A DNA stretch of 64,000 nucleotides, taken from the sequence record MN850595.1; one strand, given 5' to 3'. The notes below the pieces were generated by a model. That model had not been told where the DNA came from. It did not search any database and was given only the letters and a program-made list of their open reading frames with translations. Of this stretch, positions 16,818 to 36,265 are shown piece by piece. Position 1 is the stretch's first letter, and the number at the start of each line of letters is the position of its first letter. This stretch comes from Escherichia phage naswa. The position numbers were made by a program, and so were the translations under genes.

Positions 16818-17183
16818 ATGGAACAAATGAACGATCAAGCGTCGGTTGCGATGAACGAGCAAGAACAACCTCAAGAATTTTTCTTAGGGTTAAGTAAAGA
16901 TCAAGTGTCTCTTCTGCTAGTGCTTTCTTCTTTCATGGGAAGACTTCAGGAGCTCACACAACAACCAGAGGCTGAACAATTATTTCAAGCTCTGCGTGAA
17001 GAAGAAAAATATCGTCGTTTGGACTATGCCTTAGGTTGGGTAGCTCAACAACGAGATATGCTGATGGCCCTCTCTGGGACCACAAGTTTTGCAATGGGGC
17101 TGTTGGCTCAAGTTCAGGACAAATTAATTCAAGCAGGGTTTGCACACACGGCAAACACTAACGAAGAACAAGGAGACAAATAA
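16818..17183 (+). CDS. Hypothetical protein
   Basis: 121 aa ORF with GGAGA RBS. Confidence 0.5.
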   Translation: MEQMNDQASVAMNEQEQPQEFFLGLSKDQVSLLLVLSSFMGRLQELTQQPEAEQLFQALREEEKYRRLDYALGWVAQQRDMLMALSGTTSFAMGLLAQVQDKLIQAGFAHTANTNEEQGDK

Positions 17184-18409
17184 TGAGCGTTATTCAACAA
17201 TTCGCTAACCCGATGAATCCGCGTGAAACTGTTTTACTGGCTCACGGCATGATTAAACGTGTCAGCATCAAGCCTATCAAAGGTGCTGATCCTACAACAG
17301 GTATTAAAACCACTGTGTGGCAAGGTAAGAAAATTGAATCCAGCCACACCATCTCTTTACTGATTTCTGAACTGGATTCCTCTGATAACCTGCTTCAAGG
17401 TGGTGAAGAAGTTTGGATCAGCATGGGTGATAAGCTGCTTAAACCTGGTCATCAAGACTCTGTCTCTGTTAAAATTGATGACAAGTGGGAAACCGTAACG
17501 CCGGGATGGATCGTAAATATCCCTTTGAAGGCAAACGAGCATAACGGTAAGACCTATTACAAAGGCTCACTGGCTAAGATGGTCAAGCTGGGTGCAGGAG
17601 AGGCTCCAGCAGCGACTCAGCAGCAAAAACAGCAACAAGGTGCACAATCACAAGGCCAGAAGCAGAAACCTCAGCAGAATGCCAATCAGGACGTTTTACG
17701 CATCTATGGCGATGTGACTCAGATTGTTGGCAACGTGGTTACTGTTAATGACCACAAGATTGGCGAAGGTGCTATGGTTGTAACTGATGAGCAGCTTAAA
17801 GACCTGGTGGTAGGTGGTCGTGTTGCAGCCATTGTTGACAAAGACACCGGAAACATTATCAGTGGTTTCAAAGCCTACCCCCCTAAGGCAGAGAACGGCA
17901 CTCAAGGCTCCGGTGGCAAGCGTAAATCCTCTTACGACCCTATCGGTGTGGAAACGGGGCATAGCATCAATGCGTTGCAGATCATCCTGGATCGCGGGTT
18001 TAAGGTAGACGACCCACTGGGCGTGGCTAAAACACTGCACGTAGTCACCATTGAGCTTAAGAAAGAGTATGCTCAAGCCACCAACCGAACTGAAGATGAA
18101 GTAGGTGCCAGTGTCGGTAATGCGGTGTTGAACGCTTGTCGCCGTATTGACAAGAAAACGAAAGTTGATGATTTTGCAGCGGCAATTACTGCAGAAGCAA
18201 AAGATGTCTTGACTAATCTGGCTGAACCGTTGTACGATTGGATCAAGAACGGTGCTGGGTCAACTGACTATCAAGAACCCCAGGCTGCCAAACAGGAAGC
18301 AGCTCCACAGCAAAACACTGTAGACGCTCCTCCTGTAAATGATGAGGAAGATGACCCAATGGATCAGAATCCAGCACAGTATACCTTTGATGATGACATC
18401 CCTTTTTAA
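17183..18409 (+). CDS. SSB-like protein with Q-rich linker and acidic C-terminal tail (putative single-stranded DNA-binding protein)
   Basis: C-terminus DDDIPF matches the conserved SSB tail; Q/G-rich flexible linker; location in replication module; N-terminal fold not recognisable by eye. Confidence 0.45.
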   Translation: MSVIQQFANPMNPRETVLLAHGMIKRVSIKPIKGADPTTGIKTTVWQGKKIESSHTISLLISELDSSDNLLQGGEEVWISMGDKLLKPGHQDSVSVKIDDKWETVTPGWIVNIPLKANEHNGKTYYKGSLAKMVKLGAGEAPAATQQQKQQQGAQSQGQKQKPQQNANQDVLRIYGDVTQIVGNVVTVNDHKIGEGAMVVTDEQLKDLVVGGRVAAIVDKDTGNIISGFKAYPPKAENGTQGSGGKRKSSYDPIGVETGHSINALQIILDRGFKVDDPLGVAKTLHVVTIELKKEYAQATNRTEDEVGASVGNAVLNACRRIDKKTKVDDFAAAITAEAKDVLTNLAEPLYDWIKNGAGSTDYQEPQAAKQEAAPQQNTVDAPPVNDEEDDPMDQNPAQYTFDDDIPF

Positions 18410-18423
18410 CATCTAGTTAACAT

Positions 18424-18453
18424 AGCCCTGCCCGAAAGGGTGGGGCATTTTTG
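18424..18453 (+). terminator. Rho-independent terminator (same hairpin as 8278)
   Basis: GCCCTGCCC-gaaa-GGGTGGGGC followed by ATTTTT. Confidence 0.65.
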
Positions 18454-18471: not shown

Positions 18472-18888
18472 ATGACATTAGAAGATATCATTGTTAAGCC
18501 TGAGAACTATGACCAATACAACCTGTCAACTCAATCTGTAGACCTTGGATGCGCCACGGTCAGTGCGTGGCTGGTTAACGGAAAAGAGCTGGATAAATGC
18601 TTAGAAGCTCACATGTCTATTAACAAGTTTCTGGATGAAAATACTCACTGGCTTGAGGGTGCAGGCGTATATGCTTCATGGTTGGATAGTATGGGATTCG
18701 ACTACCAATCTGAAGAGGGGTGGTGGAGCTATTTAGCTATCTGTCCAGAGACGCTACAATGCTTCATGAAATATTCTGAAGATTTGGAGTACCGGGCGGT
18801 GGTTGATAGTGCTATTGCCCGTTATAGCCGTAAACCTTTTTCCCACGACATTAAAACTGTGGAAGAATTTGTTGAAGTTTTCTGTTGA
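18472..18888 (+). CDS. Hypothetical protein
   Basis: 138 aa ORF with AAGGAGA RBS. Confidence 0.5.
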   Translation: MTLEDIIVKPENYDQYNLSTQSVDLGCATVSAWLVNGKELDKCLEAHMSINKFLDENTHWLEGAGVYASWLDSMGFDYQSEEGWWSYLAICPETLQCFMKYSEDLEYRAVVDSAIARYSRKPFSHDIKTVEEFVEVFC

Positions 18889-18984
18889 CACAGATTGAAA
18901 GGTGTGCAATTATAACTTCATAGAACGGGAGGACGTGATGAACGAAGAAAACTGGGATGTATAACTAACAGGAGGCCACTGCCC

Positions 18985-19182
18985 ATGATTTATCGAATCC
19001 GTGTAAGAGAAGATGCACCAGGCTGTTACTTTGACTGGCGTGGGTGGTGGTTTATCCACCCAATGGATGGACTCACAGATAGAATGCTGGATGCTGCCCT
19101 TTACACAGATACCGACATAGAATATAATCTCTATCTGAAGGACGGTATAGATAACGGCCTGTTTGAAGCAATTCCTGTGTAA
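18985..19182 (+). CDS. Hypothetical protein
   Basis: 65 aa ORF with AGGAGG RBS; short uORF upstream. Confidence 0.45.
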   Translation: MIYRIRVREDAPGCYFDWRGWWFIHPMDGLTDRMLDAALYTDTDIEYNLYLKDGIDNGLFEAIPV

Positions 19183-19250: not shown

Positions 19251-19676
19251 ATGATCTATGAAATGCCAAAACTGATTCGTGACGATGCCCAAAACGCTCA
19301 CACCATTATTATGGGCAAACGCATGGATATTATTTGTCATAAAGATTTCTGGGAAGGAAGTTACTTCACAGAGTATTTTGGTAAACTGGACAATGGTCTG
19401 CTGATCCAGTTCTACACCGATGCGGAAAACAACATTCCCTGGGAGTTCGAAACTGAAGATGTCCATAAACTTTTCACCTTCCTCGGTATTAAGGTTAAGG
19501 CCAAGTTTGAAGAAGGTGAGTGCGACGATTGTGGATTTTATGAGGTAACAGATTTCTACCTTCCTAGCGGTAAGAACCTTTACTATGAAAGCCACTTCGG
19601 TAACTCCAATATGCCACAGTGCTGGACTGAGTTTTTTGAAATTGCGGAAGAGGAGCTGGCTTACCGTGATTATTGA
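19251..19676 (+). CDS. Hypothetical protein
   Basis: 141 aa ORF with GGAGAA RBS. Confidence 0.5.
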   Translation: MIYEMPKLIRDDAQNAHTIIMGKRMDIICHKDFWEGSYFTEYFGKLDNGLLIQFYTDAENNIPWEFETEDVHKLFTFLGIKVKAKFEEGECDDCGFYEVTDFYLPSGKNLYYESHFGNSNMPQCWTEFFEIAEEELAYRDY

Positions 19677-20124
19677 TACTGTAGAGGGAGATTTAATCTC
19701 CCTTTTTAAGAGCGGTGCTGGTCACCTGATCCACGGTTGTAACTGCTTCCACACAATGGGCAAGGGTATAGCAAAACAGATTGCCCGTGAGTTTCCTCAA
19801 GCACTGTCAGCCGACAAAGAGACTAGATACGGTTGCCTAAGTAAACTGGGTGCGTTCTCCCGATGGGAGCACTTATCTCCGATAGGTATTGTCTACGGAA
19901 TCAATCTATATACCCAGTTCTACCCAGGACCTAATGCTGAGTATTTCTCAATCCTGAAAGGCTTTGAGCTAGTCAATGAAGTATTCAGCGGATCGACTTT
20001 ACCATTCTACATCCCTAAGATCGGGTGCGGCATAGGCGGTTTGAAGTGGGAACACGTAGAGGACGTTATTAACCTTGCCACTTTCGACATAGATATTGTC
20101 GTGGTGGAGTACAAAAAGTGTTGA
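19666..20124 (+). CDS. Macrodomain protein, TARG1/OARD1-like (putative ADP-ribose/O-acyl-ADP-ribose hydrolase)
   Basis: HGCNCFHTMGKGIAKQI and IPKIGCGIGGLKWEHV resemble TARG1 motifs HCISEDCRMGAGIAV and MPRIGCGLDRLQWENV; GTG start after GGAAGAGGAG RBS. Confidence 0.7.
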   Translation: MIIDTVEGDLISLFKSGAGHLIHGCNCFHTMGKGIAKQIAREFPQALSADKETRYGCLSKLGAFSRWEHLSPIGIVYGINLYTQFYPGPNAEYFSILKGFELVNEVFSGSTLPFYIPKIGCGIGGLKWEHVEDVINLATFDIDIVVVEYKKC

Positions 20125-20375
20125 CGACCATCTTCTGAGGTGATATAGTTTCCACGACAACTAAGAGAGGAGAGCACTGTGGAGACTAAAATCTTAATTC
20201 TTGCTGTGGTAGATACAACCGAAGGAGCTATATTCGAATCTGCAGGAGGGTATTTCTACCTACCATACGGAAAAAGAACTTCCGAGCCAAGTAAAGATTC
20301 AATCCTCAAAGTGTTCCCGTGTGCTTTCTGGCTGGAGATTTTGGTATAAGATTGCAGAGGATTTGGGAGAGAATT

Positions 20376-20570
20376 ATGAGAAACAAGAAAGAACTTTACT
20401 CCGGTGAGTGGATCAACGATCAACAGGTGGGAGAGGTAACCTGCTTCCGATGTTTTACCAGGTACAATCTTAAAACTGCACCAAAAAGTGTTCCAAAGAC
20501 TGACGGTTACTACATAAAAGAACCTCATTGCCCAAAATGTAAATGCCGATTGTACTGGAGCAATCTGTAA
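20376..20570 (+). CDS. Small zinc-ribbon protein
   Basis: CxxC...CxxC pattern (CFRCF...HCPKCKC); ATG with GGGAGAGA RBS. Confidence 0.45.
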   Translation: MRNKKELYSGEWINDQQVGEVTCFRCFTRYNLKTAPKSVPKTDGYYIKEPHCPKCKCRLYWSNL

Positions 20571-20574
20571 GAGG

Positions 20575-20602
20575 TTGACATCTGAAAACTGCAGTGTATA
20601 AT
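20575..20602 (+). promoter_or_regulatory. Sigma70-like promoter (TTGACA-16-TATAAT)
   Basis: Consensus hexamers upstream of 20634 ORF. Confidence 0.55.
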
Positions 20603-20633: not shown

Positions 20634-20825
20634 ATGGTAATTTTTAACCGGGATGGTATCATAGTTAGACAGCACCCGTTCCTTGAATACTATCAAATTG
20701 AGCAATGGTGCTACGGGGATTGCAGTCACTCCTATGGGCAAAGTTGGGGATATCGTACAGTTTTTGAATCCACAGACCTTGACAAAGTAAAACAGAAAGT
20801 TTTAGAACTTCTTAACAACAAGTGA
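20634..20825 (+). CDS. Hypothetical protein
   Basis: 63 aa ORF downstream of consensus promoter. Confidence 0.4.
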   Translation: MVIFNRDGIIVRQHPFLEYYQIEQWCYGDCSHSYGQSWGYRTVFESTDLDKVKQKVLELLNNK

Positions 20826-33297: not shown

Positions 33298-33346
33298 CTT
33301 TTTTGAAGGGGAGTTGTAAGAAAATTAACTAAGAGGTAAAAACACC

Positions 33347-33766
33347 ATGAACATTAAATCTAATAATCCGGCATATAGCTTTGATAACGCTTTTTGTCAC
33401 GGTCCGGCGGCGAAAGGATTCGAAATCGATGGTAAACTAATTATTGTCAATGTTGACGGGGAAGAGGTTGCAGTATATCCGGTGGCAGACGTTAAAAGCC
33501 GTCTACAATGCCGCATGGATGTTACCGCCTATCAGCTTGATCCGGTCCGCATAGTTGCCCTGGTCCTGGAAGAAGAAATTAAAGCCATGCACCATAGCAA
33601 CAGATTTATTGGTGACGCGCAGGATAATATGAAAGTATGCCGCCATAAAGTTAATGAAGTGCTTAAAGAGTACGGCTATAAAGATCTTATGATCAAACGC
33701 GAGGAAAAATTCCGCTACCGTAACGACCTGGCAAATCGGATTTTTGAAATATACGAATCATTATAA
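33347..33766 (+). CDS. Hypothetical protein
   Basis: 139 aa ORF with AAGAGG RBS; last gene of plus-strand block. Confidence 0.55.
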   Translation: MNIKSNNPAYSFDNAFCHGPAAKGFEIDGKLIIVNVDGEEVAVYPVADVKSRLQCRMDVTAYQLDPVRIVALVLEEEIKAMHHSNRFIGDAQDNMKVCRHKVNEVLKEYGYKDLMIKREEKFRYRNDLANRIFEIYESL

Positions 33767-33783
33767 TTTTTTAACTGAATTAT

Positions 33784-33810
33784 CAAGGGGCTTAGGCCCC
33801 TTTCTTTTTG
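33784..33810 (+). terminator. Rho-independent terminator
   Basis: AAGGGGC-tta-GCCCCTT followed by TCTTTTTG. Confidence 0.6.
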
Positions 33811-34429
33811 TCTGCTCTTCCCCCCCTACCATAAACGGCCCTACCTGGCAAGTGGAATAATTGACGAGCCATCAATCCCACACACTGTACAAATATACAT
33901 GGAAAATAACTATTGCATAATTTTTCATTGTGTGGTAGCAAGGCCATTTTTACCCGTTTTACCTTCCAAAATTGCACGTAATGCCGCTATTGCACAAATT
34001 TTAACCTGATGCACATCTCCAATATCTTGTCAACAACTAAAAATCTTTATAAGTCATGCACTTACATAACCACAAAAGCGTGTTCTACGTGAAAAATCGA
34101 GTATAACTATAGCCGCCAGATCTCAGAATTTACGTACGCTCACCAGTCTATAGCCTGCTAAGTATTTATTCCAACCATAGAATAACGGAATAGTCAATAC
34201 CTGCATAAAATAATTATTCGTGTAAACTGCATAACATAAATCGGCTAGGATGTCAACATTTTTCGTAAACAGCTCGAAATTATAACGGTGAGTTATAATA
34301 AACAGAGAAATCTTTAGTCGTCTAATGTTTACTGTACATTACTATACTGACTGGAATCATTAGATGACTAAGAGAAAGATAAGAAATCATTAACAATGCA
34401 ATTGTTTTATTCGTAACAATAAGGCAACT

Positions 34430-34680
34430 ATGCAAACGAATGGCATGGCGCGACGGAGTCGCGACATAATATAAAAGCAGTAACCATCACCCCCGTGATA
34501 GTTTGTCTGCAAACTATTAATCAGATCATAGTTGCCTTGTATTTAGTTAATCATGACATAACAAGCAGGGCAACTATAGATCTGCTAATAGTTGCCCTGC
34601 TTTTATATTATGTCATGCTAATTATAATCAGTGCGATTATTGTCATGTATAATTATTGTCATGCAAACGAATGGCATGGC
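34430..34680. repeat. 20-bp direct repeat ATGCAAACGAATGGCATGGC (34430-34449 and 34661-34680) flanking a nested ~64-bp palindrome (34553-34616)
   Basis: Exact 20-bp repeat 231 bp apart; ATGACATAA...GCAGGGCAACTAT-10 nt-ATAGTTGCCCTGC...TTATGTCAT; ATTATTGTCATG also repeated. Confidence 0.6.
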
Positions 34681-34692
34681 TGATTATCGGTG

Positions 34693-34788
34693 TGTAAACA
34701 GTCAATCATGTAAATGGTTAGCATGTGAACAATCAGGAATGTAAACAATCCAGTGTGTAAACTAATAGGTGTGTAAAAGTGTCATGTT
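34693..34788. repeat. Six tandem iterons with 16-bp periodicity (core TGTAAAC)
   Basis: TGTAAAC/TGTAAAT/TGTGAAC units starting at 34693, 34709, 34724, 34740, 34756, 34772. Confidence 0.65.
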
Positions 34789-36265
34789 GTGTCAGTTAGG
34801 TCACATTATGTCAGACAAGTTTTTCTCCTCTTTGTCAAGTGCTGCATGAAAAATTTACAAGCTTGTATGGTAGCATTTTTGCGGCCCTGTTTACATTCAG
34901 GAGTGTATGTATAATCCTTGGTGTGTGGGCGTTTAGACGTCTAGACGGTTGGAAGTATGCAGGTCAATATCTAATCTATTGGCTGCTAACTATATCCCAC
35001 ACAAATGATAAGAAATATAATTGTTATATGCGTAAACTGTAACTCATGTTATCAATCCCTGTATGTATCGCCAGTGGTGCGCATAATGGGTATTATGTTA
35101 AATTGCCCGTAATGATAACTATTCTCACAATGATAGGTATTCTCATTCACCCCCACAAGATAGGTTGCAAATGTTGTGCCACTGTGTGAACGGCCTAGCC
35201 TATTAATTTGCCTCACTGCCTTGATATTTGAGAATTGTTATAAGAATGAGAAGTATTCCCATTTCGTCCGCCTGGCAGCACTCCAGTCGCTACCGGCTCC
35301 TGACAGGGCAGCTCTCCTGTAGGTCAGGTCAAAATCGTGGTAGAATTGGGCCTATTCAGATATTTCTGGCTGACTCTTCAGGTCTGTGTGAGAAAAGCCA
35401 ACCTTTCCGGCGGCGGGGAGGGGTCAATTAAAAAATTTACGTGGTGTATGAAGCGCTCTTCAGGTAAGGCAGGTATTATGTGATGAAACCCTCTTCAGGC
35501 AATGATATTTGTGGGTGTGATATTTGCTGGAAAGCCAGATATGACGGGACTCCCGGCGGGGCAGGGGTAGTACAGACAGGGAAAATATGGGGGATGTAGT
35601 TGGGGAAATTGATCAGGCAGGTAGAGTATGGAATATGTTACAAGTATGTTAAATATGGAGGTTGAATATCTGCAGGATTTGTGTGTAAAATCAAAGACTT
35701 AAGTGGTGTTGTGGTATTTTCTATAAATAATTCAAGTTTAATAGGTAATATTTGTCTCTATCCACTTTGTGTGGTAAACAGATTCAGATGAAATTGGTTT
35801 ACAAGTGTATACATAATATACAAATTAAAGATACAAGAAACCCCCCTCCCCCTTCGGCTACCATTCACCTTTTCCTCTGACTGGTACTTAAACACTTATT
35901 CAGACTCTTCAGGTTATCACCCATATATCATATGGCAGTGACTGGTGTCCTCCGGCCCCTCTTTCGTCACCCGTCCGCTTCGCCATGCTAATGCCATAGC
36001 CAATGGTTCGGTTGTTCACCCTGTTCACTCAGGTGTATCTCCATACCCCTTCAAACCGAAGAGAACAGAAAACCCGAATTACTCGGTAAAAGAAAAGAGA
36101 AGAACTTAATTTTATCAGGATAGGCAAGAATGTCAAGGCATGACTGCTCACTAAACAAGCAAACAGTCATGTGTGGTAGGTAAGTGATTGTGGTGGTAGG
36201 AAATTTAGTTGAAAGATGTGTTATAGGTGCGCTTCCAGCACTTTAGCCGGGCAGCTAATTGTGTG

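Follow-up and report, generated by a model that had tools for sequence, protein, structure and literature searches.

A 64,000-nucleotide stretch of DNA from Escherichia phage naswa (sequence record MN850595.1; referred to as the window in its full length) carries a gene for a stand-alone macrodomain protein of 152 amino acids that is homologous to Tk.4 of phage T4, a protein that T4 needs against the host defence system DarTG2. We consider it likely that the window protein removes the ADP-ribose that the toxin DarT2 installs on thymidines in single-stranded phage DNA, which would allow replication to go on. The fold, the macrodomain class, the conserved ADP-ribose pocket and the homology to Tk.4 emerge directly from the comparisons presented here. 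From the relatives of the protein we infer that it counters DarTG2 in the same way as Tk.4, by hydrolysis and with a role of residue Gln84 similar to that of the equivalent glutamine in SCO6735 from Streptomyces coelicolor. The gene has been annotated as a macrodomain before, and phage macrodomains countering DarTG2 have been reported twice (in a 2025 preprint and in a 2026 paper). As far as we could find, neither the glutamine-type active site of the whole Tk.4 family nor the local island of sequence divergence at the gene has been reported.

Gene, fold and homology to Tk.4

The following elements delimit the gene:
19666..20124, + strand: macrodomain gene, homologue of T4 Tk.4/AdfM (open reading frame, GenBank coding sequence, Pfam, PHROG, BLASTP and AlphaFold2)
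19650..19655, + strand: Shine-Dalgarno-like GAGGAG, 10 nucleotides before the GTG start (read from the sequence)

According to the list of open reading frames and the sequence itself, the gene is intact and in frame, begins with GTG and ends with TGA, just as a first-pass annotation made from the sequence alone had delimited it. The mechanically called reading frame comprises 179 codons (19585..20124) and opens at ATG 19585. GTG 19666 is the better start because it is preceded by the GAGGAG element, because it overlaps the stop codon of the upstream gene (GTGATTATTGA) and because the N-termini of homologues match it (MIVKYIKGD in T4 Tk.4, MIIDTVKGD in Krischvirus GEC-3S). We rejected ATG 19585 because a gene starting there would share 92 nucleotides with the upstream gene and lack a ribosome-binding site, and because homologues begin at the position equivalent to the GTG. 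Exactly the interval 19666..20124 is annotated in three independent GenBank records, as 'macro domain protein' (HdK5_00038), 'phosphatase' (APECc02 gp029) and 'hypothetical protein' (bas48_0091). The ratio of nonsynonymous to synonymous substitution rates (dN/dS) lies between 0.10 and 0.14 in three pairwise comparisons and points at purifying selection.

The protein matches the Pfam family Macro (PF01661) with 28 bits at a gathering score of 22 and PHROG 335 with an E value of 2e-59, while DarG ranks first in NCBIfam and is the sole match in PADLOC. We collected 94 homologues and aligned the 65 full-length sequences among them into a family profile. When compared with solved structures, this profile retrieved DarG from M. 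tuberculosis (E 2e-17), BT1257 from Bacteroides (E 2e-16), TARG1 (E 3e-16), SCO6735 (E 1e-15), DarG from T. aquaticus (E 2e-15) and Poa1p (E 4e-13). Members of the TARG1/ALC1-like class span E values from 2e-17 to 4e-10 in this search, and the macrodomains of coronaviruses (nsp3), alphaviruses and PARP proteins (PARP14) appear at E values of at least 0.02. The AlphaFold2 model is of high confidence (pLDDT 97, pTM 0.91). Its top match in the PDB as judged by Foldseek is human TARG1 (TM-score over the query, TMq, 0.78; over the target, TMt, 0.84-0.85; E 2.5e-10), followed by Poa1p, the DarG macrodomains from T. aquaticus and M. tuberculosis, BT1257 and SCO6735. At E<=0.001 the PDB search gave 166 matches. 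Each of the 50 listed is a macrodomain or a design on that fold, and the top 19 are all TARG1/ALC1-like. The protein is a macrodomain of the TARG1/ALC1-like class. The first-pass annotation had spoken of a TARG1/DarG-type macrodomain, which holds at the level of the class by profile E values, by Foldseek and by PADLOC and NCBIfam.

Within this class, the key homologue is T4 Tk.4 (NP_049723). It aligns with the window protein over the full length (39% identity over 153 aligned columns in BLASTP, E 3e-41) and reaches 164 bits with the family profile, as compared to 50-66 bits for other subfamilies. Both are stand-alone macrodomains of about 150 amino acids, both belong to PHROG 335, both carry a glutamine at the position of the catalytic lysine, and they have the motifs HGCNCFHTMG, NLYTQF and P(K/R)IG(C/A)GIG in common, the last of which reads PRIGAGIG in Tk.4. 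The two differ in their origin (Straboviridae versus Vequintavirinae) and in their gene neighbourhood, which in T4 consists of vs and tk.3, and genetic evidence is at hand for the T4 protein only. Krischvirus GEC-3S carries, between vs and tk and thus at the position of tk.4, a gene whose product is 69.5% identical to the window protein. A translated search detected homologues in 2771 of 50,697 phage records (about 5%), mainly in large myoviruses of Escherichia, Klebsiella, Salmonella, Pseudomonas, Vibrio, Acinetobacter and Aeromonas; in T4-like phages the match adjoins vs and is annotated as tk.4. That Macro domains are common in myoviruses has been noted in earlier comparative work (PMC9503650). 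Among the matches in the viral structure library BFVD, 'tk.4' of Acinetobacter phage 133 ranks second (TMq 0.89).

The best match in the same library is A0A481YV05 from Marseillevirus LCMAC103 (302 amino acids; TMq 0.93, 39% identity), which is labelled 'SNF2 subfamily protein'. Macrodomains of the Tk.4 type are therefore also present in eukaryotic giant viruses.

Active site and proposed role against DarTG2

Functional evidence for the family comes from T4. In the HIDEN-SEQ preprint, tk.4 emerged as the single significant hit after growth of a T4 transposon library on a DarTG2 host, and a clean tk.4 knockout rendered T4 sensitive to DarTG2, upon which the gene was named adfM (bioRxiv 10.1101/2025.11.20.689424). 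Strains of E. coli carry DarTG2 (PMC7003065). The suggestion of the first-pass annotation that the protein counters a DarT-like defence thus gains support through homology to a protein needed by T4 on a DarTG2 host. We propose that the window protein acts as a stand-alone ADP-ribosyl glycohydrolase of the Tk.4 (AdfM) family and is probably made early in infection. DarT2 of the host would attach ADP-ribose to thymidines of single-stranded phage DNA, the macrodomain protein would remove it and replication could proceed. In this reaction Gln84 may position the distal ribose and a catalytic water, as has been proposed for Gln85 of SCO6735, instead of following the lysine chemistry of TARG1 and DarG.

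Three segments of the gene encode the presumed active site:
19732..19782, + strand: motif block 1, HGCNCFHTMGKGIAKQI, amino acids 23-39, with N26 (aligning with N22 of DarG) and the first ADP-ribose-binding glycine loop (alignments)
19903..19917, + strand: motif NLYTQ, amino acids 80-84, with the Gln84 codon CAG at 19915-19917 (hidden Markov model and MAFFT alignments)
20011..20070, + strand: motif block 2, IPKIGCGIGGLKWEHVEDVI, amino acids 116-135, second glycine-rich ADP-ribose loop with Gly124 (alignments)

The first and the last of these had been singled out in the first-pass annotation, and both are found in the translation. N26, G34 and A36 never vary in the alignment of 65 sequences, and H23, C27 and M31 hardly do; in the second loop P117 and G120 are invariant and G122 and G125 nearly so. 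A larger set of 240 sequences combines 236 family proteins, the window protein and three solved references, and here departures at N26 are limited to fragments and references. The corresponding active-site asparagine is N22 in DarG from T. aquaticus and N23 in AdfM from phage PhiKZ (PMC13309987). Gln84 is present in every full-length member among the 236 family proteins, T4 Tk.4 included; the exceptions are four fragments, three with gaps and one with an arginine in a truncated protein. The putative placement of Gln84 is based on two independent alignments and on the conserved T-[K/Q] context. Asp125 of TARG1 aligns with Gly124, and this column holds glycine or alanine across the family. An exhaustive profile search recovered 1351 cluster representatives at E<=1e-30, a number that rises to 10,454 at E<=1e-10.

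A number of points weigh against the proposed function. The catalytic lysine, Lys84 in TARG1 and Lys80 in DarG, is replaced by Gln84, on which the hidden Markov model and MAFFT alignments agree, and the window protein does not have the long mobile loop with lysines by which SCO6735 binds DNA. As both the lysine and the loop are absent, the chemistry and the preference for DNA have to be inferred. With the NCBIfam model for DarG2 (NF048014) the protein scores 46.8 bits at an equivalog cut-off of 250, matching positions 3-141 out of 338. In profile and all-versus-all BLASTP comparisons, the family is about equidistant from DarG, TARG1, SCO6735/BT1257, Poa1p and gp104 of PhiKZ (50-67 bits, 20-28% identity). 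Placement in any of the characterised subfamilies was rejected on these grounds; the equidistance justifies assignment to a subfamily of its own together with Tk.4 and no more. Macrodomains are often promiscuous and also act on protein-linked ADP-ribose, ADP-ribose-1''-phosphate (Appr-1''-p) and O-acetyl-ADP-ribose. The evidence from T4 is genetic, stems from a preprint and does not demonstrate hydrolysis. Finally, we found no test of Vequintavirinae against DarTG2 in the literature, and the transposon library of the Vequintavirinae phage Bas54 was not challenged with DarTG2.

How much weight the missing lysine should be given can be judged from SCO6735, the only characterised precedent for a glutamine-type active site. 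This enzyme protects against DarT and cleaves ADP-ribose from thymidines in DNA, by what its authors propose to be a water-mediated mechanism; its Gln85 is essential, as the Q85A variant loses hydrolysis of ADP-ribosyl-thymidine DNA (PMC9411070). The first-pass annotation had asked for the catalytic residues to be checked by alignment. The outcome is divided, with the lysine and the aspartate of TARG1 absent and N26 and the glycine loops conserved. The function is not thereby refuted, because all full-length members, including the genetically validated Tk.4, have the glutamine and because the equivalent residue of SCO6735 is essential. Nor is Gln84 a sign of decay, since it occurs in every full-length family member sampled.

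Some relatives feature domain arrangements that bear on the question of function. In the three longest ones examined, all metagenomic (378-570 amino acids), the Tk.4-type macrodomain is fused to a NADAR domain (P0120, 472 amino acids; P0180, 378 amino acids; P0191, 570 amino acids). The uncharacterised domain DUF4326 is present in P0120 and also in P0231 (302 amino acids), which is without NADAR. All four proteins retain the glutamine motif. NADAR is the domain of DarG1, and NADAR enzymes termed AdfN are carried by phages (T4 30.3, Bas32, Bas60), some Vequintavirinae among them (Bas60-62) (PMC11825919). They follow the strategy proposed for the protein studied here, being orphan antitoxin-like hydrolases that erase DarT marks (PMC11825919). 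Their fold is unrelated, they are specific to guanine-linked ADP-ribose installed by DarT1 and they do not act against DarTG2. The fusion of a macrodomain with NADAR would unite erasers of thymidine- and guanine-linked ADP-ribose on DNA and fits a shared role in DNA de-ADP-ribosylation.

Comparison with characterised macrodomains and alternative functions

Among the characterised proteins that hydrolyse ADP-ribosyl-thymidine are DarG, TARG1 and SCO6735 (PMC9411070) as well as Targ1 and Targ3 from the fly (PMC12879935). The DarG2 macrodomain (5M3I from M. tuberculosis, 5M31 and 5M3E from T. aquaticus) is the best PDB match of the family profile, and its active-site asparagine is conserved (N26 corresponds to N22). 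It differs by Lys80 in an FPTK motif where the window protein has Gln in LYTQ. Moreover, the window protein is without the C-terminal DarT-binding domain of DarG2, a toxin gene is not adjacent and the neighbours do not match transferase families. Identity with a DarG2 antitoxin was rejected on account of the score below cut-off, the missing Lys80, the missing C-terminal domain and the missing adjacent darT. Human TARG1/OARD1, the best structural match, is of the same length and topology, and the histidine of its H-x-C motif and the IGCG loop are conserved. Its Lys84/Asp125 dyad corresponds to Gln84/Gly124 and identity amounts to 22-26%, so that assignment to TARG1/OARD1 proper was likewise rejected because the dyad is absent.

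SCO6735 and BT1257 resemble the window protein in that glutamine replaces the catalytic lysine. They are 56% identical with each other and only 23-26% identical with the window protein (39-43 bits). They read NMIGQ in place of NLYTQ, they have a mobile loop with Lys89 and Lys93 that is 5-6 residues shorter in the window protein, and they are cellular, DNA-damage-associated proteins. Membership in the SCO6735/BT1257 subfamily was rejected because of the low identity and the missing extended loop.

A further phage protein that counters DarTG2 is gp104 of PhiKZ, which another group independently also named AdfM. It removes DarT2-installed ADP-ribose from DNA and protects the phage from DarTG2 (Cell Rep 2026, PMC13309987). 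Like the window protein it is a stand-alone phage macrodomain of the same structural class. It differs in being of the DarG2 type, with an FPTK motif and the catalytic K78, and in being imported into the phage nucleus. We translated its sequence from the construct printed in PMC13309987. It matches DarG from M. tuberculosis with an E value of 9e-25, whereas identity with the window protein is about 20% (26 bits) and with T4 Tk.4 roughly 20-30%, the latter only over short local matches (21 bits). Judged by their sequences, the two proteins named AdfM belong to different subfamilies, PhiKZ gp104 being of the lysine type and DarG2-like and T4 Tk.4 of the glutamine type.

It is rather unlikely that the main substrate of the window protein is another or a broader one, be it protein ADP-ribosylated by host or phage transferases, ADP-ribosylated RNA, O-acetyl-ADP-ribose or ADP-ribose-1''-phosphate, the compound from which the old 'phosphatase' name derives. 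GenBank and PHROG call the family 'phosphatase', and the GenBank label of Tk.4 itself reads 'phosphatase; contains A1pp phosphatase motif'; this label is a legacy transfer of a motif and does not go back to an assay. Poa1p, an Appr-1''-p phosphatase with the H-x-C-N-C motif in common, is among the best matches in fold and sequence, but it is the weakest of the characterised class members (53 bits as compared to 60-67). TARG1 and SCO6735 also remove protein-linked ADP-ribose (PMC9411070), and the authors of a comparative survey made the case that soluble ADP-ribose derivatives may be what phage Macro domains prefer (PMC9503650). The occurrence in 2771 of the 50,697 records is wider than might be expected for a counter to a single defence system. 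On the other hand, the sole functional evidence for a family member is specific for DarTG2, and neither a source of Appr-1''-p of the KptA/Tpt1 type nor an ADP-ribosyltransferase is annotated in the window, as judged by the annotation of Bas48. For neither Tk.4 nor the window protein did we find published enzymology.

A more speculative and rather improbable view starts from the observation that the Tk.4 type is the commonest phage macrodomain and always has the glutamine. It could then represent a mechanistically separate, lysine-independent branch whose substrates are wider than or different from thymidine-linked ADP-ribose on DNA, such as other bases, RNA or protein, and the divergence island described below could reflect an ongoing arms race with particular host ADP-ribosyltransferases, possibly through toxin binding in addition to hydrolysis.

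It is conceivable, if very improbable, that protection occurs mainly without catalysis, by binding and blocking of DarT2 or by sequestration of an ADP-ribose-derived molecule. The C-terminal domain of DarG blocks DarT, and even the catalytically dead Q85A variant of SCO6735 still inhibits DarT in vitro (PMC9411070). AdfB of ICP1 binds DarT directly and thereby neutralises it, and a sharp island of divergence between otherwise near-identical Vequintaviruses is what would be expected if the surface of the protein co-evolved with a partner. However, the conserved positions are residues of the pocket (N26, Q84 and both glycine loops), which argues for selection on ADP-ribose chemistry; a protein of 152 amino acids has no counterpart of the DarT-binding domain of DarG, and an enzymatic role is suggested by the fusion to NADAR, which is likewise a hydrolase. 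That the reading frame is decayed or the motif resemblance due to chance can be dismissed: nothing beyond the missing lysine and aspartate of TARG1 speaks for it, and it is at odds with E values of 1e-15 to 1e-59, a pLDDT of 97, a dN/dS of about 0.1, intact genes in at least 116 genomes and a glutamine that is universal in full-length members. Removal of ADP-ribose from thymidines modified by DarT2 is thus the function we favour.

Genome setting, divergence and significance

Surroundings of the gene comprise the following features:
19546..20145, no strand: divergence island over the macrodomain gene and the last 120 nucleotides of the upstream gene (60-nucleotide windows, compared with JeffSchatz, Bas55)
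19251..19676, + strand: upstream gene for a protein of 141 amino acids, function unknown (list of open reading frames, sequence; PHROG 8157, unknown function)
19100..19128, + strand: sigma-70-like promoter, TTTACA-17-TATAAT, 11/12 (consensus scan only; nearest strong candidate for the two-gene unit)
18885-18913: sigma-70-like promoter (consensus match only)
18425..18446, + strand: intrinsic-terminator-like hairpin ending the preceding transcription unit (scan; annotated terminator in HdK5)

The 2-kb stretch around the gene is 99.8-100% identical to Escherichia phages magaca, APECc02, HdK5, pangalan and CarlMeissner (Bas48), which are rV5-like myoviruses of the genus Vequintavirus. About 100 further relatives match this stretch at 90-99%, at least 116 genomes of related phages carry the macrodomain gene in intact form, and the window is collinear with coordinates 58497-122496 of Bas48. 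Against this background of high similarity, the comparison with JeffSchatz (L007, positions 1381-1980) reveals 65-88% DNA identity inside the island, whereas the flanks are 92-100% and mostly 97-100% identical. Synonymous divergence (dS) within the macrodomain gene is about 1.1 in the same comparison. This pattern suggests that recombination among Vequintaviruses has replaced the allele by that of a relative further removed. Such divergence is common for genes in host-phage conflict.

The gene lies in a long rightward array of small genes, downstream of those for helicase, primase and DNA polymerase. The stand-alone copy in an early or replication region that the first-pass annotation had described can be confirmed, in the form of a 152-amino-acid protein encoded after these three genes and behind sigma-70-like promoters. 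As the stop codon of the upstream gene overlaps the start of the macrodomain gene, the two are probably co-transcribed and translationally coupled. A match to Pfam was not obtained for the upstream 141-amino-acid protein. Its gene is not found beside the macrodomain gene in T4 or GEC-3S, so that a functional link between the two is not supported. The consensus scan for sigma-70 promoters detected 20 sites as compared to 12.2 ± 3.4 in shuffled sequences, and the layout of promoters and terminator would permit early transcription by the RNA polymerase of the host. No gene for a transferase, a NADAR protein or NAD metabolism was detected with Pfam and PHROGs among the ten flanking reading frames or in the Bas48 annotation of the whole window.

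The sole annotated match among these ten reading frames is a protein of 64 amino acids (20376-20570, + strand) with a phage zinc-binding domain (Pfam PF23903, E 8e-23). A perfect 12/12 sigma-70 consensus (TTGACA-16-TATAAT; 20575-20602, + strand) is situated just upstream of a gene for 63 amino acids (20634..20825). On the other side of the macrodomain gene, 17183-18409 (+ strand) encodes a protein of 408 amino acids without a Pfam match (PHROG 4477, function unknown) that contains a linker rich in Gln and Pro and terminates in FDDDIPF. The single-strand-binding protein (SSB) of E. coli recruits partner proteins through its C-terminal tail, DDDIPF. The product of 17183-18409 may be a single-strand-binding protein of the phage, or it may mimic the SSB tail.

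The rightward and the leftward gene block are separated by about 2.5 kb of non-coding sequence (33300-35785). This gap is AT-rich, with a GC content down to 0.34-0.37, and direct as well as inverted repeats based on GGCAACTAT / ATAGTTGCC are clustered in it (34414-34680), together with a perfect 20-nucleotide direct repeat 231 nucleotides apart. Neither a tRNA nor an Rfam family was detected in the non-coding region from 33.3 to 35.8 kb. The equivalent intergenic region of Bas54, about 2 kb in length, took no transposon insertions (bioRxiv 10.1101/2025.11.20.689424). The gap may hold a replication origin or another essential cis element.

Because the basic biology of phage macrodomains in DarTG2 escape has already been described, our finding mainly consists in a sound annotation. 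Two points seem under-appreciated, the use of the name AdfM for two subfamilies and the glutamine that all full-length relatives sampled have in common. If the function proposed here is confirmed, escape from DarTG2 by means of a macrodomain would extend from T4 and nucleus-forming jumbo phages to the rV5-like Vequintaviruses. Phages of this group are used in phage-therapy and biocontrol cocktails. With homologues in about 5% of sequenced phage genomes and an unusual active-site glutamine that is common to SCO6735 and not to DarG or TARG1, the Tk.4-type family is a concrete and abundant test case for lysine-independent removal of ADP-ribose from DNA.

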